Shown here: in pieces, positions 14,594 to 60,752 of the stretch
Position numbering within the stretch: position 1 is the first letter of the stretch
How the letters are laid out: each line of letters starts with the position of its first letter
Virus record (IMG/VR): IMGVR_UViG_3300042892_003817
DNA: 64,000 nucleotides
Strand: one strand, 5' to 3'
DNA from: a virus
Taxonomy: Duplodnaviria; Heunggongvirae; Uroviricota; Caudoviricetes
Made by a program: the position numbers and the translations under genes
Notes under the pieces: model-generated
Told to the model about the DNA's origin: nothing
Seen by the model: only the letters and a program-made list of their open reading frames with translations
The model's database searches: none

Positions 14594-14607
14594 AACCGTT
14601 TTTGTTT

Positions 14608-47735: not shown

Positions 47736-47953
47736 TATAGTCTGCTGAATTTTAATACTTTAGTCGCTTTTACTGCTTCTAGGAACTGTCTGTGTGCTGA
47801 TTTTTGTGAAGGCTTTCTTCCAGTTGGAGTTGTTATCTTCTTTACTGCTCTAGGCTTTCCTTGTTCTCCCCAATGAATAAAATAATGTTCTCTATCTTTT
47901 ACAAATGCAATTTCATTTCCATTCACCGTCACTGTCAATAATGTTTTTTTCAT
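47735..47953 (-). CDS. hypothetical basic protein (72 aa)
   Basis: ORF. Confidence 0.4.
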   Translation of the reverse strand: MKKTLLTVTVNGNEIAFVKDREHYFIHWGEQGKPRAVKKITTPTGRKPSQKSAHRQFLEAVKATKVLKFSRL

Positions 47954-48279
47954 TTTATATAATTTCTATCTATTAAATCATTCCAGGTTAAAATTCCTAC
48001 TAAATGTATAATTGAATAGGAGTCTGTGTAGGTTGAAACAGCTCCATACTCTGGATGATCAAAGTCAATCTGATAGCATTCATCTAGAACTGTTATAATG
48101 CATTCTAGATTATGGTATACATTGTTATCAAGTACATCTTTTGAAAATCCATTCTTAAGAAGAAATGATCCTATGTAAGGATTTTTATCTTCAACTAACC
48201 TCTTACCCCAAGTATCTGAGTTGCCTATTGGAGATTTATCATTATCAAATCTCTCAGAATATTTTTCAAGTCTTTGCAT
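47950..48279 (-). CDS. hypothetical protein (109 aa)
   Basis: ORF. Confidence 0.4.
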   Translation of the reverse strand: MQRLEKYSERFDNDKSPIGNSDTWGKRLVEDKNPYIGSFLLKNGFSKDVLDNNVYHNLECIITVLDECYQIDFDHPEYGAVSTYTDSYSIIHLVGILTWNDLIDRNYIK

Positions 48280-48281
48280 TA

Positions 48282-48629
48282 CTATAAGCTTGTTAATACT
48301 GTATCCAGCATATTTGTTTCATTTACAAATAGTTTGTCTTCTAAGGCTTGTCTATTCTCTTCCATGTGAGCATGAATTATTTTTATGATCATATCATAAG
48401 CTTTTGAATGCAAAGACTTTGCAAAAGAAAACTTAGAGTTAGTAATCTGAATTCCATTCTCTTTTAGCAAAACATAGTAATGTTTCTGCTCATTGATAAG
48501 AAAATACTTATCTGTTAGAGGTGTCATCCTTAAAGATGTTTTAGGATGTGCTAATAATTTAGTAACAATATCTATGAATTGTTGCTCTTGCTGTGTTGGT
48601 GTGTACTTGAAAAATCTTTTGAATATCAT
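48282..48629 (-). CDS. hypothetical protein (115 aa)
   Basis: ORF. Confidence 0.4.
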   Translation of the reverse strand: MIFKRFFKYTPTQQEQQFIDIVTKLLAHPKTSLRMTPLTDKYFLINEQKHYYVLLKENGIQITNSKFSFAKSLHSKAYDMIIKIIHAHMEENRQALEDKLFVNETNMLDTVLTSL

Positions 48630-48634
48630 AACCT

Positions 48635-48871
48635 TTATTTTTTAATTACTACTTGTTTTATTCTATCAAATAATGTTTCTAGTTCCTCTATTGAACCTAC
48701 TGACCATTTGTCTGTTTTTAGTATAAAGAAACAATCCTCGTCTCTATCAATTCCTATACTTGAACGTGCTTCTATCTCTAAAGATTCATACTCATCCCTG
48801 TCTGATAAACAATTAGCATCTTGTGAGAATATAAATGATGCTTGTTCTAATAATGTACCTTGATCTTCCAT
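48635..48871 (-). CDS. hypothetical protein (78 aa)
   Basis: ORF with promoter module 48877-48925. Confidence 0.4.
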   Translation of the reverse strand: MEDQGTLLEQASFIFSQDANCLSDRDEYESLEIEARSSIGIDRDEDCFFILKTDKWSVGSIEELETLFDRIKQVVIKK

Positions 48872-48876
48872 AACCT

Positions 48877-48925
48877 TTTTAATTATACTTAAAGATAAGA
48901 AAAAGGCTCCGAAGAGCCAACTTTT
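48877..48925 (-). promoter_or_regulatory. promoter module with an embedded GGCUC-UUCG-GAGCC hairpin (48905-48918)
   Basis: tatacttaaagataagaaaaaggctccgaagagccaact; the hairpin is identical to the one at 39933-39946. Confidence 0.45.
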
Positions 48926-48926
48926 C

Positions 48927-49643
48927 TTAAATAAATTTTACTGTATTTGTTTCCTTGTCCCAATCAAACGTCATTGGCTTTTGAGTGTACTCGTAAGCCT
49001 CATCCAATACTGATGCATTAAAGAAGTGAGTACCATTTTTAAACTCATAACCATATCCTGAATGAATATGTCCACATACATGGATCTTTGGTTTAATAAT
49101 TTCAATTCTTTGAGCTAACAATTCGCATCCTAATCCGTCCCAAGGTCTTCCTGCTACTGTATCTAGAGTTCCAAATGAAGGACCATGTGTAACCAAGATG
49201 TCTGTGTTGTCAGGAATACCTTCCCACTTACCTGCTATTTCAATTCCATTTTTTGGTAAATTGAATGCCCAAGAATAGAATTCCGGTTGCCAAGGTGATC
49301 CGTAAATGCGAATATTGTCTTGAGGAGAATCTCCATTTGGACCATCTCCGTATAGTACTAAGTCATCATCTTGAAGATAGATTATATCTCCAAACTTGTC
49401 TACCCATTCCTTTACATCCTCAGGATGATTTTCAAACATTCGATCGTGGTTACCTGCTATGAATACTTTGTCTTGGTATTGCTTTAGAGATTGGAACCAA
49501 TGACAGAAATCCCAGATGTCGTTCTTGTTGTACCCTGAATTCATTATGTCTCCAGCATGAATAAGAAGATCACCTCCAGGTAAATCTTCCATAGGAATCA
49601 ATCCATGTCTTGTATGTGTGTCTGATAGTACTGTTATTCTCAT
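48927..49643 (-). CDS. calcineurin-like metallophosphoesterase (238 aa)
   Basis: LSDTH, HAGD, GNHD, GH-x-H metallophosphoesterase motif series. Confidence 0.7.
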   Translation of the reverse strand: MRITVLSDTHTRHGLIPMEDLPGGDLLIHAGDIMNSGYNKNDIWDFCHWFQSLKQYQDKVFIAGNHDRMFENHPEDVKEWVDKFGDIIYLQDDDLVLYGDGPNGDSPQDNIRIYGSPWQPEFYSWAFNLPKNGIEIAGKWEGIPDNTDILVTHGPSFGTLDTVAGRPWDGLGCELLAQRIEIIKPKIHVCGHIHSGYGYEFKNGTHFFNASVLDEAYEYTQKPMTFDWDKETNTVKFI

Positions 49644-49873
49644 TATAGTTTTTTGTTTTTAAAGTTTTGCCAAGATTCATCTTCTTCTAAAAATTTCTCA
49701 ATAAAAATAACTAACCCTGCTCCTAAGGCTGCAATGTTCATTATAGGAATGAATAAAAAAGGAAGTGGTTCTAAAAAGTCTTTTACTGACCCTCCTTCTT
49801 TTTTTATTAGGAAATATGCCACTAACATACTAAGTACTAGTGGTAAAACGTAAAGTAATAATATCCAAATCAT
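49643..49873 (-). CDS. small membrane protein (76 aa)
   Basis: 2 TM. Confidence 0.35.
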   Translation of the reverse strand: MIWILLLYVLPLVLSMLVAYFLIKKEGGSVKDFLEPLPFLFIPIMNIAALGAGLVIFIEKFLEEDESWQNFKNKKL

Positions 49874-49876
49874 AAT

Positions 49877-50233
49877 CTATATTTTAAATAATTCGTAGTT
49901 ACTATTTTCTGTATTAAATTTAATATAATCTTCTCTTTGCTCTACAATCTCTGTTACTAGAGTTGTTTGCCAAGTAAATGAAGGTCCGAATGGAGACATT
50001 AATAAACTTCTTCCAACAGCAATGTCTTCAAAGTCTGCTTTATACCTTCCTTCCTCGTTAAACTCTAACCATTTTACTCCTACTGATGTTTTAGTTAGAC
50101 CGTCTCTTTCTCTTACTAATTTGTAGTTTGGTTTTAATTCTTTACCAAATATGGACTTAAATGCTTCATCTAGATCAAATGTACCTTCCTCAGTTTGAGT
50201 TAGTAATACTTTTGGTTGTGCTCCTCCTATCAT
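49877..50233 (-). CDS. hypothetical protein (118 aa)
   Basis: ORF. Confidence 0.4.
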   Translation of the reverse strand: MIGGAQPKVLLTQTEEGTFDLDEAFKSIFGKELKPNYKLVRERDGLTKTSVGVKWLEFNEEGRYKADFEDIAVGRSLLMSPFGPSFTWQTTLVTEIVEQREDYIKFNTENSNYELFKI

Positions 50234-50236
50234 AAC

Positions 50237-50647
50237 TTATACTGTATGTTCAATTTGTACTCTTACACAATTCTGAGGTAATCTGTGGATATGTCTGTAG
50301 TTGTTTATGTACCCCATCATGTTAGCACTCCCCACAGCATTTGCAGAATGTATTACAACATCAACAACAGGAGCTCCGTCCAACCATTTATCCACCAGCC
50401 ATTTAGTGCAATCCATTCCAGTTTTCTCTTCAATGTTATCATAATTTAATTCATAATTGTGATACACGTTTGAGTGCCATTCAGCCATTGCCGAAGGTCC
50501 TAAATCGTGATCTAATGAAATTATATCAATGTTTTCCAGTCCTAAGTCTTGTACCTTTTGTACAAACTCTTCGTAATTTCTTACCACGATCCAAGTTGGA
50601 TCAACTGGTGTTCTTACGTCGTCTAAGTATATTCTATGTCTTAGCAT
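50237..50647 (-). CDS. hypothetical protein with LDHDLG / VHSAN-x2-G motifs (136 aa)
   Basis: ORF; the motifs suggest a small alpha/beta nucleotide-processing domain. Confidence 0.4.
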   Translation of the reverse strand: MLRHRIYLDDVRTPVDPTWIVVRNYEEFVQKVQDLGLENIDIISLDHDLGPSAMAEWHSNVYHNYELNYDNIEEKTGMDCTKWLVDKWLDGAPVVDVVIHSANAVGSANMMGYINNYRHIHRLPQNCVRVQIEHTV

Positions 50648-50773
50648 CTTCTTTTTCTTCGTTAAATAAATCTTCTCCTTTGTAGTCTGGATGATTTGTA
50701 TTCATGTAATCAATTCCTTCTACCCACAGTCCTACTGCTATTATAAAAGCTGCTGCTACTACTGATACTATTA

Positions 50774-51391
50774 CTAATCCCACCATCCTTCAATATTTTC
50801 TTCCATTATTTTAAATAGCAATTTTCTTGCCCTATCTTGATTTATATGTGCAATGCTCATTGCAATGATTCTTTTCATTTCAGATTCATCTCTACCATCT
50901 AGAGTAAATGGCCCTTCACCTTTTAATACTCTTTTATAAACTAAAGGATACTTTTTAAAGAACTCATCATAATTTTCCCATACCTCTTCTGAATTATATA
51001 AAGATGATCCTGGTCTGTCTTCACAATCAGTAAACCAAACTCTGTCTTTATGGTAATCCATATACTCCATTGAGTAAGGCTCTTCCTGACATGCTTTAAT
51101 TAATTTAACACATAGTCTCATTCTACGAGCGTCTTGTTGTGCTCTTGTATGAAAATCTCTTCTACCGATATAATTGGCTTGAGCTTTCAATTTATGCTTC
51201 ATTATTTCATAGATGTAATGTCCATCCCAATTTCTGTCTTTCCAGATGATTGGAAACCAATAGACAATGTTCTTTACTCCTTGTATGAAGTATTTGTGAT
51301 AATACTTTCCGTCATGCTCCCACCACAGCCATATTCTTCTAAAGAAGTTTGGTCTTGGTTGGTTTTTTAAATCTTCAAAAAAATCTTCCAT
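50774..51391 (-). CDS. hypothetical protein (205 aa)
   Basis: ORF. Confidence 0.45.
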   Translation of the reverse strand: MEDFFEDLKNQPRPNFFRRIWLWWEHDGKYYHKYFIQGVKNIVYWFPIIWKDRNWDGHYIYEIMKHKLKAQANYIGRRDFHTRAQQDARRMRLCVKLIKACQEEPYSMEYMDYHKDRVWFTDCEDRPGSSLYNSEEVWENYDEFFKKYPLVYKRVLKGEGPFTLDGRDESEMKRIIAMSIAHINQDRARKLLFKIMEENIEGWWD

Positions 51392-51392
51392 A

Positions 51393-51953
51393 CTAGAATT
51401 TATTTTTTAATTCTTCTTTTTTAATTATCTCTTTTAATCTCTGAACGTAAGTTAAATCCTCAGCATAATTCTGTCTTAAGTATTCAAAATACTCTCCTTC
51501 AGTTTTAATACTTCTTAAGTAAGATGAATAGTATAAAGCATAATCGATAACTGATTCTTGCCATGTTTCATAATAGGCATGACCTCTATTTGTTCCTTTT
51601 GCTAAATTAGCTCTTAACTTAGCTTCTTTCATACCGAACATGTTATTGTTCTCTAGAAAGATAGTTGATTTAAAATGCCCTGATTCTAATTTAGCTTGTG
51701 CTAAAATAATATAAGGATACTTAAAATTTAACTCTGTAATCTTTTCAATTAGTTTAGTCTCACTAAACTCGTTATATTCTCTAACTACAATCAATTTCTC
51801 TTCCTGAGAAAGATTCTGTACTTCATTAGCTGGATTAGATGTAAATCCAAATACTAATAGTAATCCTACTGCTGCTCCGAATCCTAGTAATGACTTGTTG
51901 GTCAATTTAACTTTTTCTGGTAACAGTGTCTGTTCATTAAATTTGTAATACAT
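51393..51953 (-). CDS. membrane-anchored peptidoglycan hydrolase, mannosyl-glycoprotein endo-beta-N-acetylglucosaminidase (FlgJ-like) domain (186 aa)
   Basis: N-terminal TM; ILAQAKLESGHFKS...NNMFGMK matches the glucosaminidase-domain signature. Confidence 0.55.
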   Translation of the reverse strand: MYYKFNEQTLLPEKVKLTNKSLLGFGAAVGLLLVFGFTSNPANEVQNLSQEEKLIVVREYNEFSETKLIEKITELNFKYPYIILAQAKLESGHFKSTIFLENNNMFGMKEAKLRANLAKGTNRGHAYYETWQESVIDYALYYSSYLRSIKTEGEYFEYLRQNYAEDLTYVQRLKEIIKKEELKNKF

Positions 51954-51961
51954 AACCTTTT

Positions 51962-52013
51962 TGTTTAATTATTATACCTAAATATATGAAAAAAGAGTTG
52001 AACTAGCAACTCT
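51962..52013 (-). promoter_or_regulatory. early-type promoter module
   Basis: tatacctaaatatatgaaaaaagagttgaactagcaact. Confidence 0.5.
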
Positions 52014-52026
52014 TTTAACAATTATT

Positions 52027-53154
52027 TTAGTGAGAATCTCCTACATCATTCTTCTCTCCGTAGATCAAATAGTCTGGATTGATTACCTTTGCTACCTTTT
52101 GACGTTCACCGGTGAAGTATTTAATTACAATTCCTTCATGTGGTACTTTAGTTCCTTCAATGAAGTTGTTGAATGTAAATTTATCTTGGATTTCTTGTGT
52201 CCAATCCCCATAATGTAAAACCTCTACATAAGGTAATTTTAAATGGTTTTCAATTAAAACCCAAGCATCATATGTACTTACGTATTCTCCTTTAAGTTTC
52301 ACATCAAACCCTGCAAACTCAATATCAGTCAAACCATAGTCATAGTTTTTCTGAATACCTGCTCCGTAAATCTCTCCGTATAGGATAATACCTTCACCTA
52401 TTTCAATATTTCTGTTTTTAATATAACTCCAAAGTTTTTCTTTGATGTTATACTTTTCAGCGATTGTTCTCCAAACATCAGTTGAATAGAATCCTTGAGA
52501 GTCACTTCCTTTTTCACAGTTATGAGATCCATAAATGTATTCATAGTCAATCCATTCATCAGCTAGTCTAAAGAATTTTTTTACTTTATCCCAGAATGAT
52601 AATTTACCTTTCTTTACAATACCGTATCTAGCATTTGTACCGTGAACCTTTCTAGTAATTTCTACTAAATCTTCTTCAGTAAACATTCCTGCTACGTTTT
52701 TAAGGTTTGGGAATTTGTAGTAGATATGGAAGTTTTGATTGTCTCTCCATTTAATTTTTCTACCTGAAGCAAGTTGAATTTGCTTAACTGGTGGTTCGTA
52801 TTTTACAATACCAAATTTTTCCATCATGTCATCTCCATCTTGGTATCTGTCTCCATATCCTGGAATGTATTTGGTTGGAATGATTAGACATTCAGAATAA
52901 ACTCCTCTTAATTTTACAGTTCTTACTCTACCTCCTTTTCTTAGATAAGAAGTAACTCCCATTTTTTCAGAAAATGCTTCTGGAATTACTGCATCCGTAG
53001 TTGCAATAACTGTTAAGTCACCTTCTTTAAATTCACCTTTTTTGGTAATAGCATTCCATCCTCCAACAACTACTTGTTCGATGTTGTCAGCTCCTTCGAT
53101 TGCTTTTACTTCTTTGATTGTTGCTACAAAGCAAACACTATTTTGATTTTCCAT
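52027..53154 (-). CDS. ATP-dependent RNA ligase, Rnl2-like nucleotidyltransferase with an N-terminal extension (375 aa)
   Basis: Motif I KVHGTN (Rnl2 KIHGTN), motif IV-like EGIVIKY, motif V KVAKVINPD. Confidence 0.6.
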   Translation of the reverse strand: MENQNSVCFVATIKEVKAIEGADNIEQVVVGGWNAITKKGEFKEGDLTVIATTDAVIPEAFSEKMGVTSYLRKGGRVRTVKLRGVYSECLIIPTKYIPGYGDRYQDGDDMMEKFGIVKYEPPVKQIQLASGRKIKWRDNQNFHIYYKFPNLKNVAGMFTEEDLVEITRKVHGTNARYGIVKKGKLSFWDKVKKFFRLADEWIDYEYIYGSHNCEKGSDSQGFYSTDVWRTIAEKYNIKEKLWSYIKNRNIEIGEGIILYGEIYGAGIQKNYDYGLTDIEFAGFDVKLKGEYVSTYDAWVLIENHLKLPYVEVLHYGDWTQEIQDKFTFNNFIEGTKVPHEGIVIKYFTGERQKVAKVINPDYLIYGEKNDVGDSH

Positions 53155-53253
53155 TTTTTATTTCTTTTTAAGTTCATTTAAAATATCATGCAATTTAAAA
53201 CCTATGTACCATAAAGACACTACTATTAACCATACTTTCCAAAATTCCATTTC

Positions 53254-53661
53254 TTATAATTTTATTTCGAATCTATTTTTCATTTGTACTAATTTTTCTT
53301 CTGGGACTCCATGCTCGTTTACTCCTCCATGTCTATTTTCTACAATCAAAGAATAAACTCTGTATCTGTATTTTTCTGCTAGATCAAAGTATGGTTGCAT
53401 TTCCCATTCCTGAGTGAATGTATTCGACACTACAATCCTGTTTGCTGGGTGTATATGTGCTCCAAATCCTTTCATAATAGCTTCTACACGATCTTGGCAC
53501 CACTTATGAGCGTCTTTTAATTTAGAAGCATCAAATCTATACTCTCCTTTCTCATCTAAGAAAAAAAGATCTGCTTCAAAAAAAGATCCTCCTGTTAAAG
53601 ATTCTGCTAATGTTGATTTACCTGATCCAGGTAATCCTCTTAATAAAAATAACTCTTTCAT
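53254..53661 (-). CDS. P-loop polynucleotide 5'-kinase-like protein (AAA_33 / T4 Pnk kinase-domain-like, 135 aa)
   Basis: LLRGLPGSGKSTLAESL Walker A and FEADLFF acid motif resembling the T4 Pnk N-terminus. Confidence 0.55.
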   Translation of the reverse strand: MKELFLLRGLPGSGKSTLAESLTGGSFFEADLFFLDEKGEYRFDASKLKDAHKWCQDRVEAIMKGFGAHIHPANRIVVSNTFTQEWEMQPYFDLAEKYRYRVYSLIVENRHGGVNEHGVPEEKLVQMKNRFEIKL

Positions 53662-53873
53662 ATTTTCTTTTTTAACATCATATTACTATGGTCTCCATGT
53701 TTACGTAAAAACTCTTGAGTAAAACATTTAGGTTCTGGTATTAGATCTAACCTAGATGCAGCTCTTGCTGTATAATCTCTCTGAGTAGTTATGTTAAACT
53801 CTTCAGTATTATAAAATTTATACCATTGAGGTTCTTTAACCTTTTGTGGACTGTATGAGTATATTATATTCAT
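53658..53873 (-). CDS. hypothetical protein (71 aa)
   Basis: ORF within the RNA-repair operon. Confidence 0.35.
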   Translation of the reverse strand: MNIIYSYSPQKVKEPQWYKFYNTEEFNITTQRDYTARAASRLDLIPEPKCFTQEFLRKHGDHSNMMLKKKI

Positions 53874-53874
53874 A

Positions 53875-54525
53875 TTAAATTCTCTTTTCGTGATGATCCT
53901 TTGGTAAAGCTAATTTTTTAACTGGACGATCTTTCATCAATTCTACTATTTCATCTAATGATAAAGGCTCTAAACCATTTCCATCTACTCCAACATCCAT
54001 TGCCTTACCTTCTGCTATTCTTAGGTGTGAAGGTAAATGAACGTGGCCATGCAAGTGAATTACTCCTTGGTTCATATCATGCCATGACGCTATTGGATAG
54101 TGCATACAAACGAAAATAAACTTTTCAGTTGTTGCTTTATTGATTGGTCTTTGTACTTCTAATCTCAAATAGTTTTGTACTGAAGAGAATAGTTTTTGTA
54201 CTCCCTCTTTGTTTCTTTCGATGTGATGATCATGGTTTCCAAATGTCAAGTGAATGTTTTTACAGTTGATTTGACTTCTGAATTCTTCAATCTTATCAAA
54301 TCCTCCAAATGACCAGTCACCTAAATGGATTAAGATATCATCTTCACCGACCATGTTGTTAATGTTATCAACTAGTCTTTGGTTCATATCTTCCAATGAA
54401 TCAAACTTACGAGCATATCCATCATTCACTGACCAGTTTGTAGTAGCACTACAAATGTTTGAGTGTGAGTAATGTGTGTCTGATGTAAAGAACAATTGCT
54501 GTCCTTTTTCTAATACTAGTTTCAT
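53875..54525 (-). CDS. calcineurin-like metallophosphoesterase (216 aa); candidate 2',3'-phosphatase partner of the kinase and ligase
   Basis: FTSDTHYSH, HLGDW, GNHDHH, HGHVH motifs. Confidence 0.65.
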   Translation of the reverse strand: MKLVLEKGQQLFFTSDTHYSHSNICSATTNWSVNDGYARKFDSLEDMNQRLVDNINNMVGEDDILIHLGDWSFGGFDKIEEFRSQINCKNIHLTFGNHDHHIERNKEGVQKLFSSVQNYLRLEVQRPINKATTEKFIFVCMHYPIASWHDMNQGVIHLHGHVHLPSHLRIAEGKAMDVGVDGNGLEPLSLDEIVELMKDRPVKKLALPKDHHEKRI

Positions 54526-54526
54526 T

Positions 54527-54817
54527 TTAATCTATTGTATTAACTGGGAATAACATATTTCCTTTTATTGATATTTTTTTACTTGATGTAGAATCTATTA
54601 CCAAGTCTGCACTGTATAATGCTCTCTTTGTAATCTCTACATCCATTGTTACTGTCTTTTCATTTACCTTACTTATAGTACCTATTCGTACATAAGTAAA
54701 TCCATTTTCATTTCTGGAGTATCCGTATCGCTGTCCTATTTGAATCTCTATTCCTAATGCATCTTTCATAATCTTTTTTCTATACCTAAATATACGAATA
54801 AAAGCCTGCCTAAGCAA
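54527..54817 (-). CDS. hypothetical protein (96 aa)
   Basis: ORF with promoter module 54775-54822. Confidence 0.4.
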   Translation of the reverse strand: MLRQAFIRIFRYRKKIMKDALGIEIQIGQRYGYSRNENGFTYVRIGTISKVNEKTVTMDVEITKRALYSADLVIDSTSSKKISIKGNMLFPVNTID

Positions 54818-55158
54818 GCTTTTTGTTAATTATTTTTAAAAAAATGTTGCTGGGATGTAAAGCATATAGCCTAGGTCAAATGCAAAATCAAAGTCAAAAA
54901 CCTTCCACTACCACAAGGGCAAGGACAAAAACTAAGTCTTAGAGTCGCTAGCCACTTTTAGTCTCCCTCAAGAGTAACATGTCTAGCTGTTGAGTTCTAT
55001 CTCAGTTTGGTTTAAGTTGTAGGGAAGCGAGTTTTAAAGGGCCCATGGCCGTTTAGTCTGTAGATGATTACATATATCATATAGTTTATATTTAAAACTC
55101 TACTATCCCAGCATAAAGCTTTGGAGGATCGGCTTGTGCTTACCTCCTTAGCACCAAA

Positions 55159-56070
55159 TTATTTTAGTTGATTCAAGAATTCATCTACTACGTCCTGGAA
55201 TCTTTCTGCTACTTCAATTTTTAAATTGACAGCTTCTTGGATTCTTGCTTGACGTTTTTCTTCAAACTCGTGTTGTGCTTGACGTTCCTCTCCAGACCAC
55301 TTATCATAAGCTAACTTATAATTGTTTGCAGCTTCTGCATTCTCGTTATTCACTCTTGCTTGAATGATACCTCTCTCTTTCTGAATTCTAGCATTCTCAG
55401 AAGTAGTAGCATTTTTTACTTTAGATTTAAAGTAATTTACTCTTTGTTCAAATCCTCTATGAAGAGCTGCTAATTGTTCATGAACTGAAAGCAATTGTTC
55501 TGCTGTATGGTGAATAGATACTTTCATAGGAGTTTTCTTTCCTACTTCTATTTCCATAAACTCTAAAGTTTTAATGGTAGGAAGTTCTCCTCTCAACTTA
55601 TCCAATTTTCCTCCTTTATGGATGAATTGTCCGATATGTGAAGCATAAGCTTCTGCCTCTAGGTATTCGTTGTATTCGGCTGTAGATAAAGTATCCCAAC
55701 CAAAATCTTCATCCACTTCTGTTGGAATTACTTCTGAGATTAGTTTTGGTCTCTCTGGAGATTCAACCTCGTAGTTATACTTTTCAAATTTGATTTTAGT
55801 AATCAATTCATCCTTTGCTTTGATATTCTCCATCAAGAAAGCTTGAGTGGCAGATAATCTTGCCTTAGCAGTTAATAGCTCAACTACGTTTACTGGGATA
55901 GGATTCCCATTAGTCTCTACATAGGTTTCTGAACCTATTACTAGTTCTTTAGAAACGTTATTGATATCAGCCAATTTCGCTGTAATATCTTTTGAACGTT
56001 GATTGCACAAGTTTGAGATTGATTGTGCTTGAGACATTGATAACCCTTTTGTAGATAACGAATTTTTCAT
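55159..56070 (-). CDS. hypothetical protein with a coiled-coil C-terminus (303 aa)
   Basis: ORF. Confidence 0.45.
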   Translation of the reverse strand: MKNSLSTKGLSMSQAQSISNLCNQRSKDITAKLADINNVSKELVIGSETYVETNGNPIPVNVVELLTAKARLSATQAFLMENIKAKDELITKIKFEKYNYEVESPERPKLISEVIPTEVDEDFGWDTLSTAEYNEYLEAEAYASHIGQFIHKGGKLDKLRGELPTIKTLEFMEIEVGKKTPMKVSIHHTAEQLLSVHEQLAALHRGFEQRVNYFKSKVKNATTSENARIQKERGIIQARVNNENAEAANNYKLAYDKWSGEERQAQHEFEEKRQARIQEAVNLKIEVAERFQDVVDEFLNQLK

Positions 56071-56085
56071 AACTATGATTTTTAT

Positions 56086-56301
56086 TTAATTATTTCTATA
56101 TGTTTTTATTGGTTCTTTTAATGGAAATTCTGGGTTGTCAATAAAACCTAAGAATATACAATTCCTTCTTTTTCCTTTAACATCACAAAATCTCCAATCT
56201 GTTGTAAGATCTATATTAGATAGATCGCCCATAAATAGTCTAGTATGTATTGTCCATGCTAATTGCTCTTTTACTTCAATACTAAATACAGACCAGACCA
56301 T
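56086..56301 (-). CDS. hypothetical protein (71 aa)
   Basis: ORF. Confidence 0.35.
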   Translation of the reverse strand: MVWSVFSIEVKEQLAWTIHTRLFMGDLSNIDLTTDWRFCDVKGKRRNCIFLGFIDNPEFPLKEPIKTYRNN

Positions 56302-56368
56302 ATTACCTTTATTTTTATTTAATATAAGAAGAAAGGTTCAGGTTTCCAAACCTTTCTCCGAATATTTC

Positions 56369-56602
56369 TTATTGGTGATGTTTGATATACCTCCCATGTC
56401 TGTCTACTCTGACATTCATTCTTGTTAAATCAAAATACCAATTGTTAAACTTACCCAAGCGAGATTTTTGTCTTGCTTGTAGGTTTGCAGATTTTTCTGC
56501 TTCTTCTCTACCATTTTCTGTAGTTTCTACAAAAAACGTGGGAGCCTGAACACCAGTCATGCTGGTTGGGACTACTCTCCAAATTCTCAATTTCTGAGTC
56601 AT
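56369..56602 (-). CDS. hypothetical basic protein (77 aa)
   Basis: ORF directly downstream of the tRNA array; hairpin GTTAGC-AAUA-GCUAAC at 56605-56620 lies between them. Confidence 0.35.
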   Translation of the reverse strand: MTQKLRIWRVVPTSMTGVQAPTFFVETTENGREEAEKSANLQARQKSRLGKFNNWYFDLTRMNVRVDRHGRYIKHHQ

Positions 56603-56666
56603 AAGTTAGCAATAGCTAACCTACATTGGAGACGAAGGAATTGACCTCATAGTGGATAAAATTTAG

Positions 56667-56739
56667 TGTCCTATACAGGGCTCGAACCTGTGACCTTCTC
56701 GTTATGAGCGAGCTGCTCTCACCATCTGAGCTAAAAGGA
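56667..56739 (-). tRNA. tRNA-Met/Ile2 (anticodon CAT)
   Basis: Cloverleaf read by hand: D-arm GCTCAGATGGTAGAGC, anticodon loop CTCATAA, T-arm ACAGG-TTCGAGC-CCTGT. Confidence 0.7.
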
Positions 56740-56744
56740 CATTA

Positions 56745-56818
56745 GTAGCGAGTGAGGGATTCGAACCCCCGACCTCTAGGTTATGAGCCTAGCGAGATAC
56801 CATCTTCTACCAACTCGC
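56745..56818 (-). tRNA. tRNA-Met/Ile2 (anticodon CAT), second copy with unpaired C1:U72
   Basis: Anticodon arm CTAGG-CTCATAA-CCTAG, T-arm GGGGG-TTCGAAT-CCCTC. Confidence 0.65.
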
Positions 56819-56824
56819 GATATA

Positions 56825-56896
56825 GCGGTCTATGAGAGAATCGAACTCTCATCCCTACCGTGACAGGGTAGTATCCTAGCCGTTGAACGAATAGAC
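56825..56896 (-). tRNA. tRNA-Asp (GTC)
   Basis: Anticodon arm CTACC-CTGTCAC-GGTAG, T-arm GAGAG-TTCGATT-CTCTC. Confidence 0.75.
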
Positions 56897-56901
56897 CTTT
56901 T

Positions 56902-56974
56902 GTGGAGCTACCGGGATTCGAACCCGGAATAACAGAATGCAAATCTATCGTGATGCCAATTTCACTATAGCCCC
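56902..56974 (-). tRNA. tRNA-Ala (TGC)
   Basis: G3:U70 identity pair present; anticodon loop TTTGCAT; T-arm CCGGG-TTCGAAT-CCCGG. Confidence 0.75.
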
Positions 56975-56978
56975 TTTT

Positions 56979-57050
56979 GTACTGCCACGGAGAATCGAAC
57001 TCCGATTTTATGGATGAAAACCATAGGTCCTAGCCGTTAGACGATGGCAG
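56979..57050 (-). tRNA. tRNA-Glu (TTC)
   Basis: Anticodon arm TATGG-TTTTCAT-CCATA; T-arm CGGAG-TTCGATT-CTCCG. Confidence 0.75.
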
Positions 57051-57101
57051 CAAATTGTAGGCGTATGCTCATCACATACTCTTGGGCTCCTACACACCCC
57101 T

Positions 57102-57173
57102 GAGCGACTAGAGAGAATCGAACTCTCATCTTCAGATTGGAAGTCTGAAGTAATGACCATTATACGATAGTCG
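57102..57173 (-). tRNA. tRNA-Gly (TCC)
   Basis: Acceptor GCGACTA/TAGTCGC; anticodon arm TCAGA-CTTCCAA-TCTGA. Confidence 0.75.
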
Positions 57174-57180
57174 CAGTTGA

Positions 57181-57253
57181 GCTTCTGGACGGGATCGAAC
57201 CGACTCTATTCTGGGTTACAAATCCGGTGCACCACCATTTGTGCGTCAGAAGC
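57181..57253 (-). tRNA. tRNA-like, possibly tRNA-Thr (TGT), with a degenerate anticodon stem
   Basis: Good acceptor (GCTTCTG/CAGAAGC), D-arm and T-arm; anticodon loop TTTGTAA, but only 3 of 5 stem pairs. Confidence 0.4.
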
Positions 57254-57328
57254 AGATAATTAGAGCCGGTTTTCGTATCCGTTCTGCAGGTTAGCCCCTG
57301 CTGCTTTACTATAAGCTAACTCTAATTT
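57254..57328 (-). pseudogene. degenerate tRNA-like remnant (acceptor TTAGAGT/GCTCTAA, D-arm GCTT-ATAGTA-AAGC, aberrant 6-nt anticodon loop, decayed T-arm)
   Basis: Hand fold; lacks the TTCGA T-loop. Confidence 0.3.
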
Positions 57329-57402
57329 GTACCCAAGGAGAGACTCGAACTCTCAGTTTACGACTTCTAAGGCCGCCGTGTCTGCCAATTCCACCACTCG
57401 GG
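57329..57402 (-). tRNA. tRNA with anticodon TAG (Leu-like), short variable loop
   Basis: 5' half resembles bacterial tRNA-Leu (GCCCGAGTGGTGGAATTGG...); anticodon loop CTTAGAA; T-arm GAGAG-TTCGAGT-CTCTC. Confidence 0.5.
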
Positions 57403-57497
57403 CATTTGCCGCATGTGCGGCCACTTATCAATCGGTAGCTCCCTCTCGTTGTCCATTTGTGGGTGTAACACATTTGGTAGAGGGTCGAACCTTAAAT

Positions 57498-57568
57498 GAG
57501 GGCAGTGTTGGAATCGAACCAACCTAACAGAGTTTGCAATCCTGTGCCTAACCAATCGGCCAACTGCC
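57498..57568 (-). tRNA. tRNA-Cys (GCA)
   Basis: Anticodon loop TTGCAAA; T-arm GTTGG-TTCGATT-CCAAC; acceptor GGGCAGT/ACTGCCC. Confidence 0.65.
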
Positions 57569-57654
57569 CATTTTCACCTAGCCTGACCTTCCAGACAGTA
57601 CAAGTCGGGATTCTATTGTTTCGCGCGCCGTTTTGTAGTAGGTGATATATTTTA

Positions 57655-57703
57655 CTTTCTTATACCTTAATATATGAAACTATTTCTGGTTTTCCAAACC
57701 TTT
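57655..57703 (-). promoter_or_regulatory. promoter module (TTTCCAAACC variant) positioned to drive tRNA block 1
   Basis: ataccttaatatatgaaactatttctggttttccaaacc; the GGTTTGG -33 element is on the minus strand. Confidence 0.45.
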
Positions 57704-57838
57704 ATTGCAATACTTACAATTATTTTTTTCCTTTTCTGATTGATGGATTCTTTTATTTTCATTACAATACCATTTTTTATCATAAGGAATAAAATTCTCC
57801 CATTTATCATAATATCCTGGCTTCCACTCTTCCATTAT

Positions 57839-58345
57839 TTAAAAGAATAAAAATGTTTCCCATTCTTTAGGTATGTATGTCATACTTCTCATTAACATTA
57901 AATAATGAGGTCTTTTTGGTTCTGGAATTTCCTTACCATATTCCTCTAATGTTAAATCTGCTTTCTCATGATTACATGGTCTACAAGCTGTTACTAAATT
58001 ATCCCAAGCATCTTTTCCTCCTTTTGATTGAGGGATAACATGGTCAAGTGTTAATATTCTTTGATTTGAACTACCACAATAAACACATTCATAATTATCT
58101 CTTCGGTAAATATTCTCTCTTGTTAGAGGTACTTTTTGAATGTTTTGTTTTACATACTTAGCTACTCTAATAATAGAAGGTTTGTAAATGGTTAGTTCAG
58201 GATTAATTAAACTAAATGTTTCTGGATGCTCTGCTACTACTTCAGCATTACCCTTATAAAAAATCACGAACGCTCGTTCGGTACTTATAACTGATCTTGC
58301 TGTAAAGCTTGCATCCACTACTAGTGCTTTTTGATACTTACTCAT
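57839..58345 (-). CDS. HNH homing-type endonuclease inserted between the two tRNA blocks (168 aa)
   Basis: CVYCGSSNQ...LDHVIPQSKGGKDAWDNLVTACRPCNHEK HNH signature. Confidence 0.65.
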   Translation of the reverse strand: MSKYQKALVVDASFTARSVISTERAFVIFYKGNAEVVAEHPETFSLINPELTIYKPSIIRVAKYVKQNIQKVPLTRENIYRRDNYECVYCGSSNQRILTLDHVIPQSKGGKDAWDNLVTACRPCNHEKADLTLEEYGKEIPEPKRPHYLMLMRSMTYIPKEWETFLFF

Positions 58346-58350
58346 GATTT

Positions 58351-58542
58351 TTAATTTAAAGGTTTATACTGTGTTTTTCTGTTGTACTTCCAAGTACGGT
58401 ACTCTCTGTACTTGAAGGCCCATATTCCGGATTTACATTTACTCCAATAGTCTTCAAACCACATTCCACCATCTTTGGATTGTTTTCTTTTTTCTTTTTT
58501 ATACTCTTTCTGAGTATAGTTTTTGATTCTCATCTTGCTCAA
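58351..58542 (-). CDS. small basic protein (63 aa)
   Basis: ORF. Confidence 0.4.
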   Translation of the reverse strand: MSKMRIKNYTQKEYKKEKRKQSKDGGMWFEDYWSKCKSGIWAFKYREYRTWKYNRKTQYKPLN

Positions 58543-58600
58543 ATTTTAGGTTAATAAACCTAATGAGCATCGAATTTCTTTTTCATAATTAATAATTTTG

Positions 58601-58671
58601 CGCAGACCGTAGGAATCGAACCTACCCGTAGCAGTTTTGGAGACCGTACCGACACCTTGTCTGTGACCCGC
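58601..58671 (-). tRNA. tRNA-like with unresolved anticodon (canonical T-arm GTAGG-TTCGATT-CCTAC, acceptor with three G:U pairs, no clean anticodon stem)
   Basis: Hand fold. Confidence 0.3.
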
Positions 58672-58677
58672 TTGTTG

Positions 58678-58749
58678 TACCCCATCCAGGAATCGAACCT
58701 AGAATTAATCTTTAGAAGAGATTCGTTATATCCGTTTAACTAATAGGGC
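58678..58749 (-). tRNA. tRNA-Arg (TCT)
   Basis: Anticodon arm AATCT-CTTCTAA-AGATT (perfect); D-arm GTTA-AACGGATA-TAAC; T-arm CTAGG-TTCGATT-CCTGG. Confidence 0.75.
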
Positions 58750-58909
58750 GGTTAAAATATAATTAGTAAGTTTTATCAGGAATCTGGGATCTAATTTCTT
58801 AGTGCTTCACACACCCTTAGAGAGTTGAGTATAAATACTTATCCTTAGTGTGTACCCTTGCGCAACGTCTCTCCACGTCTTCTTACCTACGCTTTGTAAT
58901 TATATTTTG

Positions 58910-58981
58910 AGGTCTTAGTAGGAGTCGAACCTACGTTCTATCGTTCGTAGCGATAAGTTTTTCCAATTAAACTATAAGACC
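58910..58981 (-). tRNA. tRNA-Arg (ACG)
   Basis: Acceptor GGTCTTA/TAAGACC perfect; anticodon arm TATCG-CTACGAA-CGATA. Confidence 0.75.
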
Positions 58982-59070
58982 AGTTGTAGGATATCGCTTA
59001 ACCTACGATGTTTATATCATTACACATCTTCAATGTCGAACAATTAAAGAGGACATCAGCGATTTTTTTG

Positions 59071-59150
59071 TACCCCTGACTGGAGTCGAACCAGCAAGCC
59101 TGAGCGCCAAGTTTTAAGCCTGGTGTGTTTACCTATTTCACCACAGAGGC
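59071..59150 (-). tRNA. tRNA-Leu (TAA), class II with a long variable arm
   Basis: D-arm GTG-AAATAGGTAAA-CAC; anticodon arm CCAGG-CTTAAAA-CTTGG; 11-nt variable region. Confidence 0.7.
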
Positions 59151-59545
59151 ATGTTGGGTGTAAGGACGGTACCGCCCCGTCTTCTCAAGATTCACAGTCT
59201 TGCGCTTCACTAAAAAGCTTCGAACACCATATAAAATTATACTACTTTAATAACGCTTACTCAATTTTACTACTCTAACGCTTTACCTCATTAAGTCGTT
59301 TTTTGAGAAACGTTTCTTAACTTCCTACCTACCCATATAATTTAGTACCGACTACAAGTTACGCTCTTGTCTGAGAATACTTATGAGATATTCTCGATCC
59401 TAGATCAAGTCGGTAGTTGATAGGGAACCTCTTACCCTATCGCTGTACTATCTGATTTTAATGTGTCTTACCACGGGGCCCCGTTCGTACTTCCTTCTCC
59501 TGCATTCCTTAGATGCGTTGTGAGGACGGTGAGGAGGTTTTTTTG

Positions 59546-59628
59546 AGGAAAGCAGAGGTATCGAACCCCATGCCCGAAGGCACGATACGCTTAGCAAGCG
59601 GTCTCAACTCCTAGTTGATTTACTTTCC
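59546..59628 (-). tRNA. tRNA-Ser (GCT)-like, class II, weak anticodon stem; variable arm is a UGCC-UUCG-GGCA hairpin
   Basis: Acceptor GGAAAGT/GCTTTCC; anticodon loop TTGCTAA. Confidence 0.45.
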
Positions 59629-59633
59629 CTTTG

Positions 59634-59707
59634 TAGGTAATATAGGAATCGAACCTATAACCTCTCACGTATCAGGCGAGTGCTCTAACCAATTGAGCTA
59701 ATTACCT
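59634..59707 (-). tRNA. tRNA-Ile (GAT)
   Basis: D-arm GCTC-AATTGGTTA-GAGC; anticodon arm CTCGC-CTGATAC-GTGAG; T-arm ATAGG-TTCGATT-CCTAT. Confidence 0.75.
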
Positions 59708-59713
59708 ATTTTG

Positions 59714-59785
59714 CGGGCCTGGAAGGAATCGAACCTTCATAAGATGATTAACAGTCATCCGTAATAGCCGTTATACGACAAACCC
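59714..59785 (-). tRNA. tRNA-Asn (GTT)
   Basis: Anticodon arm GATGA-CTGTTAA-TCATC; T-arm GAAGG-TTCGATT-CCTTC. Confidence 0.75.
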
Positions 59786-59823
59786 AAGAAAGCGTTACTA
59801 CCGTTATACTACCGCGCCGCTAA

Positions 59824-59862
59824 CGGCCCGGATGGGACTCGAACCCATACCTCTCTACTTCG
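59824..59862 (-). pseudogene. tRNA 3'-half fragment (T-arm ATGGG-TTCGAGT-CCCAT plus acceptor 3' strand CCGGGCC-G) with no matching 5' half
   Basis: Only 39 nt lie between tRNA-Phe and the next spacer. Confidence 0.35.
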
Positions 59863-59935
59863 TGGACCCTGTAGGAATCGAACCTACTCCTCTAGTTCTT
59901 CAGACTAGCGTACGCACCAGCTATACCAAAGGTCC
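59863..59935 (-). tRNA. tRNA-Phe (GAA)
   Basis: Anticodon arm CTAGT-CTGAAGA-ACTAG (perfect); T-arm GTAGG-TTCGATT-CCTAC. Confidence 0.75.
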
Positions 59936-59997
59936 ATTGTCTCCCGTCACTCGTATACAAGCCATGGCATTACGGGAGCGATGTTATTCCATATTTG

Positions 59998-60078
59998 TGG
60001 GACACTGTGGAATCGAACCACACCTTCTTACAGAACGATTTTACAGACCGCTTATCACACCAGTGACTGAAGCATCCC
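59998..60078 (-). tRNA. tRNA-Tyr (GTA), class II
   Basis: Anticodon arm GCGGT-CTGTAAA-ATCGT; 12-nt variable arm; T-arm TGTGG-TTCGATT-CCACA. Confidence 0.6.
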
Positions 60079-60084
60079 AATTTG

Positions 60085-60156
60085 ATCATTCTACAGGAAT
60101 CGAACCTGCTTCTCCACCCTCCGCGGGCAGCGTAGTCACCAATCTACCAAGAACGA
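60085..60156 (-). tRNA. tRNA with anticodon CGG (Pro-like), non-canonical G33 and U1:A72
   Basis: D-arm GTAG-ATTGGTGA-CTAC; anticodon loop CGCGGAG; T-arm GCAGG-TTCGATT-CCTGT. Confidence 0.45.
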
Positions 60157-60255
60157 AACTATAACAAGCTTTCATCGGCAAATTAATAACTCATAATAGA
60201 CTCCATATAGACTTGAAAATACTTGCCGGTATTTTACTTGCTACCCAGAATTTTG

Positions 60256-60326
60256 TACCTCGTAGTAGAATCGAACTACTGCCATTTCCATGTAAAAGAA
60301 ATACGCTCCCATTACGCCAACGAGGC
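60256..60326 (-). tRNA. tRNA-Val (TAC)
   Basis: Anticodon arm TTTCT-TTTACAT-GGAAA; T-arm AGTAG-TTCGATT-CTACT. Confidence 0.6.
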
Positions 60327-60427
60327 TGGTGCTACACCTGATCACAACTAACAAGCATATTGGCTTATTACTTGATCTTACAACAGCTTTTAACTGAGAG
60401 ATTGTAAGGTTGTGTATGTAGCTTTTG

Positions 60428-60499
60428 TACCCCCACCAAGAATCGAACTTGGATTCCTATATTAAAAGTATAGTACTTTAGCCGTTAAGTTATAGGGGC
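60428..60499 (-). tRNA. tRNA-Lys (TTT)
   Basis: Anticodon arm CTATA-CTTTTAA-TATAG; D-arm ACTT-AACGGCTA-AAGT. Confidence 0.75.
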
Positions 60500-60505
60500 A
60501 ATTCG

Positions 60506-60581
60506 TCGGGTAAGCAGGATTCGAACCTGCGTGCTCTAGCGTCCAAGGCCAGCGAGATAAACCAGACTCCTCTACTACCCG
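60506..60581 (-). tRNA. tRNA-Pro (TGG)
   Basis: C1:G72; anticodon arm CTGGC-CTTGGAC-GCTAG; T-arm GCAGG-TTCGAAT-CCTGC. Confidence 0.7.
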
Positions 60582-60590
60582 AAATTATTG

Positions 60591-60662
60591 TTGGCTTACT
60601 AGGATTCGAACCTAGACTAAAACAGTCAAAGTGTTTTGTGCTAACCGTTACACTATAAGCCA
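60591..60662 (-). tRNA. tRNA-Gln (TTG)
   Basis: U1:A72; anticodon arm AAACA-CTTTGAC-TGTTT; T-arm CTAGG-TTCGAAT-CCTAG. Confidence 0.75.
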
Positions 60663-60668
60663 ATATTG

Positions 60669-60752
60669 AGGAAGACATGGGAATCGAACCCACAACGGTG
60701 TTACCCGCTACTTGTTTTCAAGACAAGCTCCTCGTCCATTCGGCCGCCTTCC
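60669..60752 (-). tRNA. tRNA-Ser (TGA), class II
   Basis: Anticodon arm CTTGT-CTTGAAA-ACAAG (perfect); long variable hairpin; T-arm GTGGG-TTCGATT-CCCAT. Confidence 0.7.

Follow-up and report, generated by a model that had tools for sequence, protein, structure and literature searches.

Separate kinase, metallophosphoesterase and ligase genes of a predicted RNA heal-and-seal pathway beside the tRNA array of a Flavobacterium-type phage

Bacteriophage T4 repairs tRNA by means of its Pnkp and Rnl1 (and Rnl2) enzymes, thereby countering the PrrC anticodon nuclease. Here, we compare this and other described systems with a locus in a 64-kb stretch of DNA (IMG/VR record IMGVR_UViG_3300042892_003817, termed the window) from a phage of Flavobacterium-type (Bacteroidota) bacteria. 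A listing of open reading frames (ORFs) over positions 48000-58000 identified four consecutive minus-strand genes, encoding a metallophosphoesterase (MPE), a 71-amino acid (aa) protein (ORF71), a P-loop kinase and an RNA ligase (Table 1). These genes, which closely follow the phage tRNA array and share its strand, probably encode a multi-protein RNA heal-and-seal pathway. The initial annotation of this DNA had described separate consecutive ligase, kinase and MPE genes with the 71-aa ORF between the latter two, and the coordinates and all of the quoted motifs were confirmed.

The window follows the logic of T4 Pnkp and Rnl1 (5' kinase, 3' phosphate removal and ATP-dependent ligase), the window kinase finds its best structural match in the kinase domain of T4 Pnkp, and sister loci carry a T4-type HAD_PNKP gene by the kinase or an Rnl1-type gene in the ligase slot. 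It differs from T4 in that each activity has a separate gene, the 3'-healing candidate is an MPE (plus a cyclic-phosphate processing Receiver protein, cREC) and not a HAD domain, the ligase belongs to Rnl5 and not to Rnl1 or Rnl2, and the 135-aa kinase is without an equivalent of Arg38. The proposal that a split architecture with a stand-alone MPE sets this phage apart from T4 thus holds, as the genes are separate and no HAD_PNKP homologue occurs anywhere in the window. The Clostridium thermocellum Pnkp-Hen1 system likewise combines a kinase, a dinuclear MPE and an ATP-dependent ligase, and the kinase domain of its Pnkp (CthPnkp) aligns end to end with the profile of the window kinase. However, CthPnkp unites the three functions in a single polypeptide, its MPE being lambda-phosphatase-like and its ligase Rnl4, and has the Hen1 methyltransferase as partner, whereas the window genes are split, the ligase is of the Rnl5 type, and the main ORFs scanned from 47950 to 58345 include no methyltransferase. 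The window therefore possesses the full set of features of neither T4 Pnkp plus Rnl1 nor bacterial Pnkp-Hen1.

In silico precedents are found in other phages. A predicted RNA-repair neighbourhood of rV5/Mydo-type phages comprises a sirtuin, a T4-like tRNA ligase, cREC, a nucleotide kinase and MazG, sometimes with a calcineurin-like phosphoesterase (Iyer, Burroughs, Anantharaman and Aravind 2022, PMC9503650, section 3.7.3). The window resembles it in bringing together cREC, kinase, calcineurin-like phosphoesterase and RNA ligase, with a kinase of the same family (46% identity to that of phage slur16) and an MPE of the same family (phrog_547). It differs in the absence of sirtuin and MazG from the 64 kb searched, in the presence of Rnl5 in place of T4-like Rnl1, in gene order and in host phylum (Proteobacteria for the rV5-type phages, Bacteroidota for the window phage). 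In jumbo phages, too, ATP-dependent RNA ligases occur together with polynucleotide kinases and with phosphoesterases, a few of which are calcineurin-like and HD-like (PMC7824862, section 3.4.9), and the role predicted for comparable neighbourhoods in phages is to make 2',3'-cyclic ends ready for ligation (PMC7824862, section 3.4.9; PMC9503650, section 3.7.3). The arrangement is thus widespread and has in silico precedent from one group (Iyer et al. 2021, 2022). Among the additions made by the present analysis, the most useful are the swaps between Rnl1 and Rnl5 and between MPE and HAD_PNKP, the co-variation of cREC, the cassette-less relative immuto and the linkage of Rnl5 to end-healing enzymes.

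Domain identities and conserved residues

The ligase, which contains ITRKVHGTNARYG and PHEGIVIKYFTG, matches PF21189 (PHA02142 OB domain, E 2.9e-16) and PF09414 (RNA_ligase, E 3.5e-16), both above curated thresholds, as well as phrog_968, with the PF21189 OB module spanning residues 10-94. Its best solved relative is NgrRnl of Naegleria gruberi, which, like DraRnl of Deinococcus radiodurans, shares with the window ligase the OB plus nucleotidyltransferase organisation and an end shortly after motif V. A profile built from the window ligase, three close relatives and two canonical phage Rnl5 proteins matched NgrRnl (5cot) with an E value of 7.5e-50, the alignment taking in NgrRnl residues 6-183 and covering both domains, whereas T4 Rnl2 scored 28 bits only, over the nucleotidyltransferase core alone. 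Within this alignment, K169 corresponds to the NgrRnl nucleophile K170 (motif I), while G260-E261 (motif III/IIIa), E340-G341 (IV) and K356 (V) are invariant across window-type and canonical Rnl5 sequences. The C-terminus lies 19 residues past K356 and, unlike in Rnl1, Rnl2, Rnl3 and Rnl4, no C-terminal domain follows motif V. On account of the domain architecture, the NgrRnl profile match, the conserved motifs and the end soon after motif V, the ligase is assigned by sequence to the Rnl5 clade, in which it appears to represent a divergent sub-branch. Canonical Rnl5 proteins share approximately 25-31% identity with it, carry KLDGSS in place of KVHGTN as motif I and are without the insertion of approximately 20-40 aa that follows motif I in the window ligase. 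The score against TIGR02306, a curated equivalog model, was below threshold (85 bits versus a cut-off of 151). The initial annotation had called the enzyme Rnl2-like because the spelling of its motif I (KxHGxN) is that of Rnl2, a label that the architecture and the profile matches overturn.

Single-sequence searches of the PDB with the kinase and the MPE returned marginal matches only, and profiles and predicted structures were used instead. The kinase, containing FLLRGLPGSGKSTLAESL, matches PF13671 (AAA_33, E 1.1e-10, again above the curated threshold), phrog_2071 (annotated 'ATPase', E 7.7e-39) and, weakly, phrog_505 (polynucleotide kinase); its family has at least 8000 relatives, usually of 126-140 aa and mostly annotated 'ATPase'. 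When the AlphaFold (AF2) model of the protein (pLDDT 84.7) was compared with solved structures using Foldseek, ranks 1-13 were all T4 Pnkp or Pnk (E 1e-5 to 1e-4, TM 0.61-0.66), followed by the C. thermocellum Pnkp kinase and then by AvrRxo1, PSTK and Mucorales RNA 5'-OH kinases. Similarly, the kinase profile matched, among PDB sequences, the Rhizopus RNA 5'-OH kinase (6e-5), PSTK, the CthPnkp kinase (2e-4) and T4 Pnk (5e-3). The P-loop residues G9-x2-G12-S-G-K15-S16, D31 and the lid arginine R110 are invariant in 54 homologues and in eight diverse homologues, and D31 aligns with the catalytic Asp of the CthPnkp 'SSD' motif and, we presume, with D35 of T4. The predicted fold is thus Pnk-like, with the T4 and CthPnkp kinases as nearest solved structures, in agreement with the earlier description of a T4-Pnk-like P-loop kinase. 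The protein has a single domain, and a Pfam scan detected no fused DxDxT HAD 3'-phosphatase.

The MPE displays the motifs SDTHYSH, LGDWSFGG, GNHDHH and HGHVH, and matches PF00149 (Metallophos) with 26.6 bits against a cut-off of 21.5 and phrog_547 with an E value of 1.3e-43. Homologues with as little as 27% identity all retain its metal ligands (D16/H18, D70, N97/H98, H142 and H161/H163), which bears out the calcineurin-type assignment made initially. Within the calcineurin-like dinuclear superfamily, the MPE is a member of the aq_1665 subfamily and not of the lambda/CthPnkp clade. The nearest structure is Aquifex aeolicus aq_1665 (PDB 1xm7), a structural-genomics protein of no known function, and the role of the MPE cannot be read from structure. 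Close matches in a search of bacterial genomes were phage-like contigs in metagenome-assembled genomes.

The window was originally described as carrying a three-component module, and those three parts stand; however, a likely fourth component had been missed. The cREC gene downstream of the ligase was noticed because, in kinase-centred loci without MPE or ligase (L060 and L122; see below), cREC is encoded just downstream of the kinase. Its product matches PF20274 (cREC_REC) with an E value of 6.8e-22 (78 bits versus a cut-off of 27). Among the MPE-centred loci described below, cREC is present in 15 of the 15 that have kinase and ligase and enough sequence, and in neither of the two without them (L029 and immuto; Fisher p 0.007, uncorrected for relatedness). 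It thus co-varies with kinase and ligase and is probably part of the module. Iyer et al. predict that cREC opens 2',3'-cyclic phosphates, and describe it as experimentally uncharacterised (PMC9503650).

Linkage and exchange of the genes among phages

To place the genes in context, 41 IMG/VR loci were gathered around homologues of the MPE, 39 of which were informative (loci are numbered with the prefix L, which named phages may also bear, e.g. L002 for Pyxpy02 and L004 for Ceto). The kinase is present in 33 of the 39 and a ligase in 31, and the loci preserve the arrangement of tRNA array, then MPE, kinase and ligase; in L013, L014, L015 and L046 the MPE gene starts approximately 80 nt past the last tRNA. 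The ligase is Rnl5 in 24 loci and Rnl1-type (PF09511) in seven (L016 and L040-L045), the latter occupying the slot even where the MPE is 90% identical to that of the window, while L076 and L138 hold both types. The nearest cultured phage, Flavobacterium phage immuto (MW353175), is 84% identical at the nucleotide level over approximately one third of window positions 40000-64000. There, only 107 nt separate the glucosaminidase gene from the MPE gene, next to which come the tRNAs directly, the 1.9-kb stretch of ligase, kinase and ORF71 being missing, and tblastn of the whole 160-kb immuto genome detected no kinase, Rnl5, Rnl1, cREC, HAD_PNKP or CCA-adding enzyme. Since immuto keeps the MPE without the cassette, kinase and ligase behave as an accessory cassette and the MPE as a backbone gene. 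The idea that the size of the tRNA array tracks the cassette was discarded for want of a clear correlation: the cassette is missing from immuto, with its three to four tRNAs, but also from L029, with 19, and L016 and L043 have the cassette yet no tRNA within 8 kb.

Additionally, an unbiased survey was made of 80 IMG/VR loci centred on kinase homologues, in which ORFs were called simply and clustered by BLAST thresholds, such that divergent partners may escape. After the kinase itself, the commonest neighbouring families were the MPE (51 loci), an Rnl1-like ligase (26), an unannotated 91-aa ORF (21) and Rnl5 (20). Of the 47 kinase loci flanked on each side by 4 kb or more, both MPE and ligase occur in 22, a ligase only in six, an MPE only in five and neither in 14, against an expectation of approximately 8% for one gene placed by chance in a genome of about 150 kb. 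All of the MPE and ligase partners in these 47 loci lie on the kinase strand, while gene order is variable. Chance juxtaposition is ruled out by the recurrence of the genes across lineages and gene orders.

The kinase-centred survey further revealed that the 3'-healing gene is exchanged. In six loci (L069, L078, L090, L091, L096 and L098) a stand-alone HAD_PNKP gene (PF25109, E 5.7e-33, motif DLDGT) lies upstream of the kinase gene, at a distance of 4 nt in L091 (gene at 5542-5997) and of up to approximately 390 nt in the others, and the C-terminus of its product presumably resembles that of T4 Pnkp. In effect, the pair is a T4 Pnkp split in two, in which the domains come in reverse order. The MPE occurs in none of these six loci and in 51 of the other 74 (Fisher p 0.0016, uncorrected for relatedness). 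CCA-adding enzymes are encoded in eight loci, just downstream of the kinase in L080, L090 and L098, and L051 has such a gene directly after the MPE gene. The parts are therefore modular: Rnl1 and Rnl5 alternate or co-occur, MPE and HAD_PNKP alternate, and CCA-adding enzymes join sometimes.

L051 is a distant relative in which positions 8001-14648 encode, in order, the MPE, the CCA-adding enzyme (PolyA_pol head domain), a 210-aa protein, and an RNase T-like exonuclease together with a canonical 348-aa Rnl5; with no kinase present, this island is a different composition of RNA-end-processing genes. The 210-aa protein belongs to a family of approximately 206-210 aa, without a Pfam match and absent from the window, that recurs beside RNA ligases and CCA-adding enzymes (L051 9466-10098; L138 2461-3054, between Rnl5 and Rnl1; and 14 kinase-centred loci, e.g. 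L072 1641-2261) and is a candidate further RNA-repair component.

Beyond the lineage of the window phage, homologues of the kinase (45-52% identity) are found together with a phrog_547 MPE and an Rnl1-like ligase (phrog_562) in Pseudomonas phage Pyxpy02, Aeromonas phage phiA009, the T5-like Vibrio phage Ceto and the rV5-like E. coli phage slur16. In slur16, cREC adjoins the ligase, Sir2 is also adjacent and tRNAs lie 3.5 kb away. In Pyxpy02 and Ceto, the cluster adjoins genes annotated as ribose-phosphate pyrophosphokinase and nicotinamide phosphoribosyltransferase, a pair which we take to resemble a pathway by which phages reconstitute NAD+; in that case, the repair genes of these two phages would lie in a counter-defence region. 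In mycobacteriophage Balomoji, an annotated polynucleotide kinase lies two small ORFs from an annotated RNA ligase that matches residues 2-234 of the window ligase at 27% identity, a span covering the OB domain and the first part of the nucleotidyltransferase domain. Balomoji thus resembles the window in linking an Rnl5-matching ligase to an end-healing gene in another phage lineage, but differs in its 313-aa kinase, the size of which suggests a fused kinase-phosphatase, in the absence of an annotated MPE or cREC, and in host phylum. The Pnkp enzymes of Cjw1 and Omega, two phages similar to Balomoji, have reportedly been characterised biochemically.

Layout of the locus and neighbouring genes

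The minus-strand run is uninterrupted and leads, in order of transcription, from the tRNA array through small ORFs and ORF303 to ORF96, MPE, ORF71, kinase and ligase, and onwards through the glucosaminidase-domain gene, ORF205 and the cREC gene to, further on, a second MPE (Table 1). ORF96 and MPE, and likewise MPE and ORF71, are separated by 1 nt, ORF71 and kinase overlap by 4 nt, and a 99-nt spacer lies between kinase and ligase. Operon structure is read from spacing and strand only, because a promoter and terminator scan of 51300-57000 (sigma-70-like sites fewer than in shuffled sequences, terminators at chance level) is uninformative for a Bacteroidota phage.

Table 1. Coordinates of the candidate repair genes and of neighbouring features in the window
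Feature	Position	Strand	Description
Metallophosphoesterase (MPE)	53875..54525	-	216 aa, dinuclear, aq_1665 subfamily, phrog_547; proposed 2',3'-cyclic/3'-phosphate end-healing enzyme
ORF71	53658..53873	-	71 aa, between MPE and kinase; stop overlaps kinase start by 4 nt
P-loop kinase	53254..53661	-	135 aa, stand-alone, phrog_2071; proposed polynucleotide 5'-OH kinase
RNA ligase	52027..53154	-	375 aa, ATP-dependent, assigned to Rnl5 (NgrRnl/DraRnl) clade; N-terminal OB plus nucleotidyltransferase domain
cREC (cyclic-phosphate processing Receiver) protein	50237..50647	-	136 aa, 1.4 kb downstream of ligase, same strand; PF20274
tRNA array	56666..60752	-	21 tRNAs by ARAGORN, 22 with Rfam extra; upstream of module, same strand
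ORF96	54527..54817	-	96 aa, ends 1 nt before MPE start; possibly co-transcribed; phrog_2251
Glucosaminidase-domain protein	51393..51953	-	next gene after ligase
ORF303	55159..56070	-	303 aa, between tRNA array and MPE
Second MPE, unrelated to first	48927..49643	-	238 aa; PF00149/PF12850, phrog_1649; weak PdeM/YfcE-like NCBIfam matches
HNH endonuclease	57839..58345	-	168 aa; PF14279/PF01844; inside tRNA array between tRNA-Cys and tRNA-Arg

The nearest tRNA (at 56666) lies 2.1 kb from the MPE start, in line with the 2 kb given in the initial annotation, while the count there of more than 22 tRNAs was a slight overstatement: ARAGORN called 21 and Rfam 20, including one at 57180-57253 unseen by ARAGORN, for a union of 22. 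This Rfam-only tRNA (minus strand, 35.9 bits) lies where relatives have tRNA-Thr(tgt), between tRNA-Gly(tcc) and tRNA-Leu(tag), and the window copy may be divergent or degenerate. A gap of 482 nt (59151-59632) separates tRNA-Leu(taa) from tRNA-Ile(gat); relatives have tRNA-His(gtg) and an unusual short tRNA-Met(cat) at this position, and neither ARAGORN nor Rfam called a tRNA in the window gap. The HNH gene dividing the array may represent a homing-type mobile element.

ORF71 has no Pfam, PHROG or NCBIfam match, its relatives are found only in three related loci (L015, L033 and L034, at 79-83%), and it shows no similarity to the small ORF at the equivalent place in L006. The phrog_2251 match of ORF96 (E 2.4e-7) is to a family of unknown function, and the gene is kept upstream of the MPE in L025, L028, L029 and L137. 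ORF303, without a family match, is conserved at 63-88% between tRNA array and MPE in most relatives and is absent from immuto, whereas the second MPE is kept in immuto (immuto_39) and many relatives. Furthermore, within positions 40000-64000 the window shares with immuto a block annotated there as QueC, QueE and GTP cyclohydrolase I (7-deazaguanine/queuosine-precursor synthesis) plus thymidylate synthase, near which immuto also has QueD and DpdA; the shared 7-deazaguanine block suggests that the phage has modified DNA.

Proposed pathway and alternative explanations

The domain identities, the intact catalytic residues, the Pnk-like kinase fold and the statistical and evolutionary linkage of the genes were observed or computed. 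The activity of each enzyme, the sequence in which the enzymes act, the RNA that they repair and the existence of a host nuclease, which the initial annotation took to be of the anticodon type, are inferred. In the proposed pathway, the 3' end of a break would be healed to a 3'-OH by cREC, which would open the cyclic phosphate, and the aq_1665-type MPE, which would then remove the phosphate; alternatively, the MPE may carry out both of these steps. The 135-aa mini-Pnk would move a phosphate from a nucleoside triphosphate onto the 5'-OH, and the Rnl5 ligase, adenylylated on Lys169, would seal the resulting 3'-OH/5'-PO4 break. The tRNA array, the presence of CCA-adding enzymes and the alternation of Rnl5 with Rnl1 make tRNA the most likely substrate, although the known preference of Rnl5 for duplex nicks would also accommodate breaks in rRNA or in stems. 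The initial annotation equated the module with the healing and sealing of tRNAs cut by anticodon nucleases. The first half of this claim, a linked set of RNA end-healing and end-sealing enzymes, is supported by neighbourhoods that recur across unrelated phages, by the kinase fold and by the replacement of the MPE by HAD_PNKP beside the same kinase. Repair of the anticodon loop is less secure than it would be with an Rnl1 ligase, since characterised Rnl5 enzymes seal 3'-OH/5'-PO4 nicks in duplexes, only if the 3'-OH strand is RNA and preferably with Mn2+, and are feeble on single strands.

Several observations weigh against a complete RNA-repair pathway of this kind. The feebleness of Rnl5 on single strands means that an anticodon-loop substrate is not obvious. 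In the kinase, the arginine that contacts the acceptor (T4 Arg38/CthPnkp Arg41, three residues after the Asp) is not present, the equivalent position being F34, an invariant Phe in close homologues and Phe, Tyr or Trp across the family. CthPnkp and lambda phosphatase are no nearer to the MPE than are LpxH and MJ0936. The linkage is also incomplete: 14 of the 47 kinase loci lack MPE and ligase alike within 6 kb, no MPE lies near the kinase and Rnl5 genes of L007 and L008, and immuto and L029 retain the MPE without kinase, ligase or cREC. As these two keep the MPE alone, this protein must have an independent role, perhaps besides repair. The locus counts are inflated by kinship, the loci being phylogenetically related and the Fisher tests uncorrected for it, and a literature search returned no biochemical work on the phrog_2071 kinase, the aq_1665 MPE subfamily or cREC.

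The main rival explanation follows from the behaviour of the MPE in immuto. The cassette would consist of kinase, ligase and cREC alone, and the MPE would be a backbone gene, tied to the tRNA array and with a job of its own (which could be degradation of second-messenger nucleotides, nucleotide metabolism or processing of phage pre-tRNA 3' ends), that happens to lie beside a hot spot for accessory cassettes. Immuto, where the MPE leads to the tRNAs and none of kinase, ligase, ORF71 and cREC is encoded in 160 kb, and the similar L029 fit this explanation, as does the conservation of the MPE within the lineage (80-98% aa identity versus 65-92% for the kinase). Moreover, it is cREC, and not the MPE, that was shown to co-vary with kinase and ligase; distant bacterial homologues of the MPE have no kinase or ligase neighbours, cellular context thus being silent on its function, and the functionally unassigned aq_1665 as nearest structure leaves the role of the MPE equally free. 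Iyer et al. also predict counter-nucleotide roles for some phage calcineurin-like enzymes. Nevertheless, the same MPE and kinase families are adjacent, in differing orders, in unrelated Pseudomonas, Vibrio, Aeromonas and E. coli phages, no other family neighbours the kinase as often as the MPE does, MPE and HAD_PNKP 3'-phosphatase exclude each other, and in L051 a CCA-adding enzyme directly follows the MPE. We therefore regard an MPE unconnected with the cassette as unlikely.

It is very improbable that the set works instead on DNA or RNA-DNA junctions, where it would clean 3'-phosphate/5'-OH nicks and seal nicks with a ribonucleotide-ended 3'-OH, as proposed for DraRnl in radiation resistance. 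T4-type Pnk is active on DNA as well as RNA, Rnl5 joins an RNA 3'-OH to 5'-phosphate DNA in nicked duplexes, with repair of RNA patches in DNA as one published speculation, and DNA ligase genes lie near the cluster in Pyxpy02, phiA009 and slur16. However, the ligase slot is interchangeable with Rnl1-type enzymes, the characterised members of which seal breaks in RNA stem-loops, the neighbours are tRNA arrays, CCA-adding enzymes and cREC, and both cREC and HAD_PNKP point to RNA with 2',3'-cyclic or 3'-phosphate ends. Finally, it is scarcely credible that the cluster handles small molecules (NAD+/ADP-ribose derivatives or signalling nucleotides) and not RNA ends, its small kinase being of the nucleotide or NAD type, for although Iyer et al. 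2022 term the rV5 homologue 'a nucleotide kinase' in a sirtuin/NAD-linked neighbourhood, the NAD kinase AvrRxo1 is among the fold matches, and NAD-salvage-like genes (Pyxpy02 and Ceto) or Sir2 (slur16) adjoin the cluster elsewhere, the top fold and profile matches are polynucleotide or tRNA kinases, the kinase gene abuts a T4-type HAD_PNKP gene, RNA ligases are among its most frequent neighbours, and the 64-kb window has no Sir2, MazG or NT5C homologue.

As heal-and-seal repair of RNA is well established in phages, an RNA-repair role for the window genes extends, and does not overturn, known biology. It bears on the active field of counter-defence against RNA-cutting immunity, which includes PrrC, RloC, PARIS, retron-linked nucleases and Cas13. 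To this field, the window locus and hundreds of related loci offer a concrete parts list, i.e. the small kinase, the MPE subfamily, cREC and Rnl5, while the swaps (Rnl1 for Rnl5, MPE for HAD_PNKP) and cassette-less phages of the immuto type represent natural genetic controls. A very small polynucleotide kinase could, additionally, serve as a reagent. The physiological role of Rnl5 is called uncharted in a passage of PMC5397189, and a more far-reaching, if doubtful, proposal is that the Rnl5-based kit constitutes a distinct route, mending breaks made in tRNA stems or rRNA by a Bacteroidota defence nuclease yet to be identified and not cuts in the anticodon loop. If this were true, it would provide the Rnl5 family with its first physiological role and its first partner enzymes. 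Furthermore, phrog_2071 would be the smallest known polynucleotide kinase, aq_1665-type MPEs would be RNA 2',3'-phosphoesterases and cREC a cyclic phosphodiesterase, with all three representing interchangeable parts of one phage toolkit.

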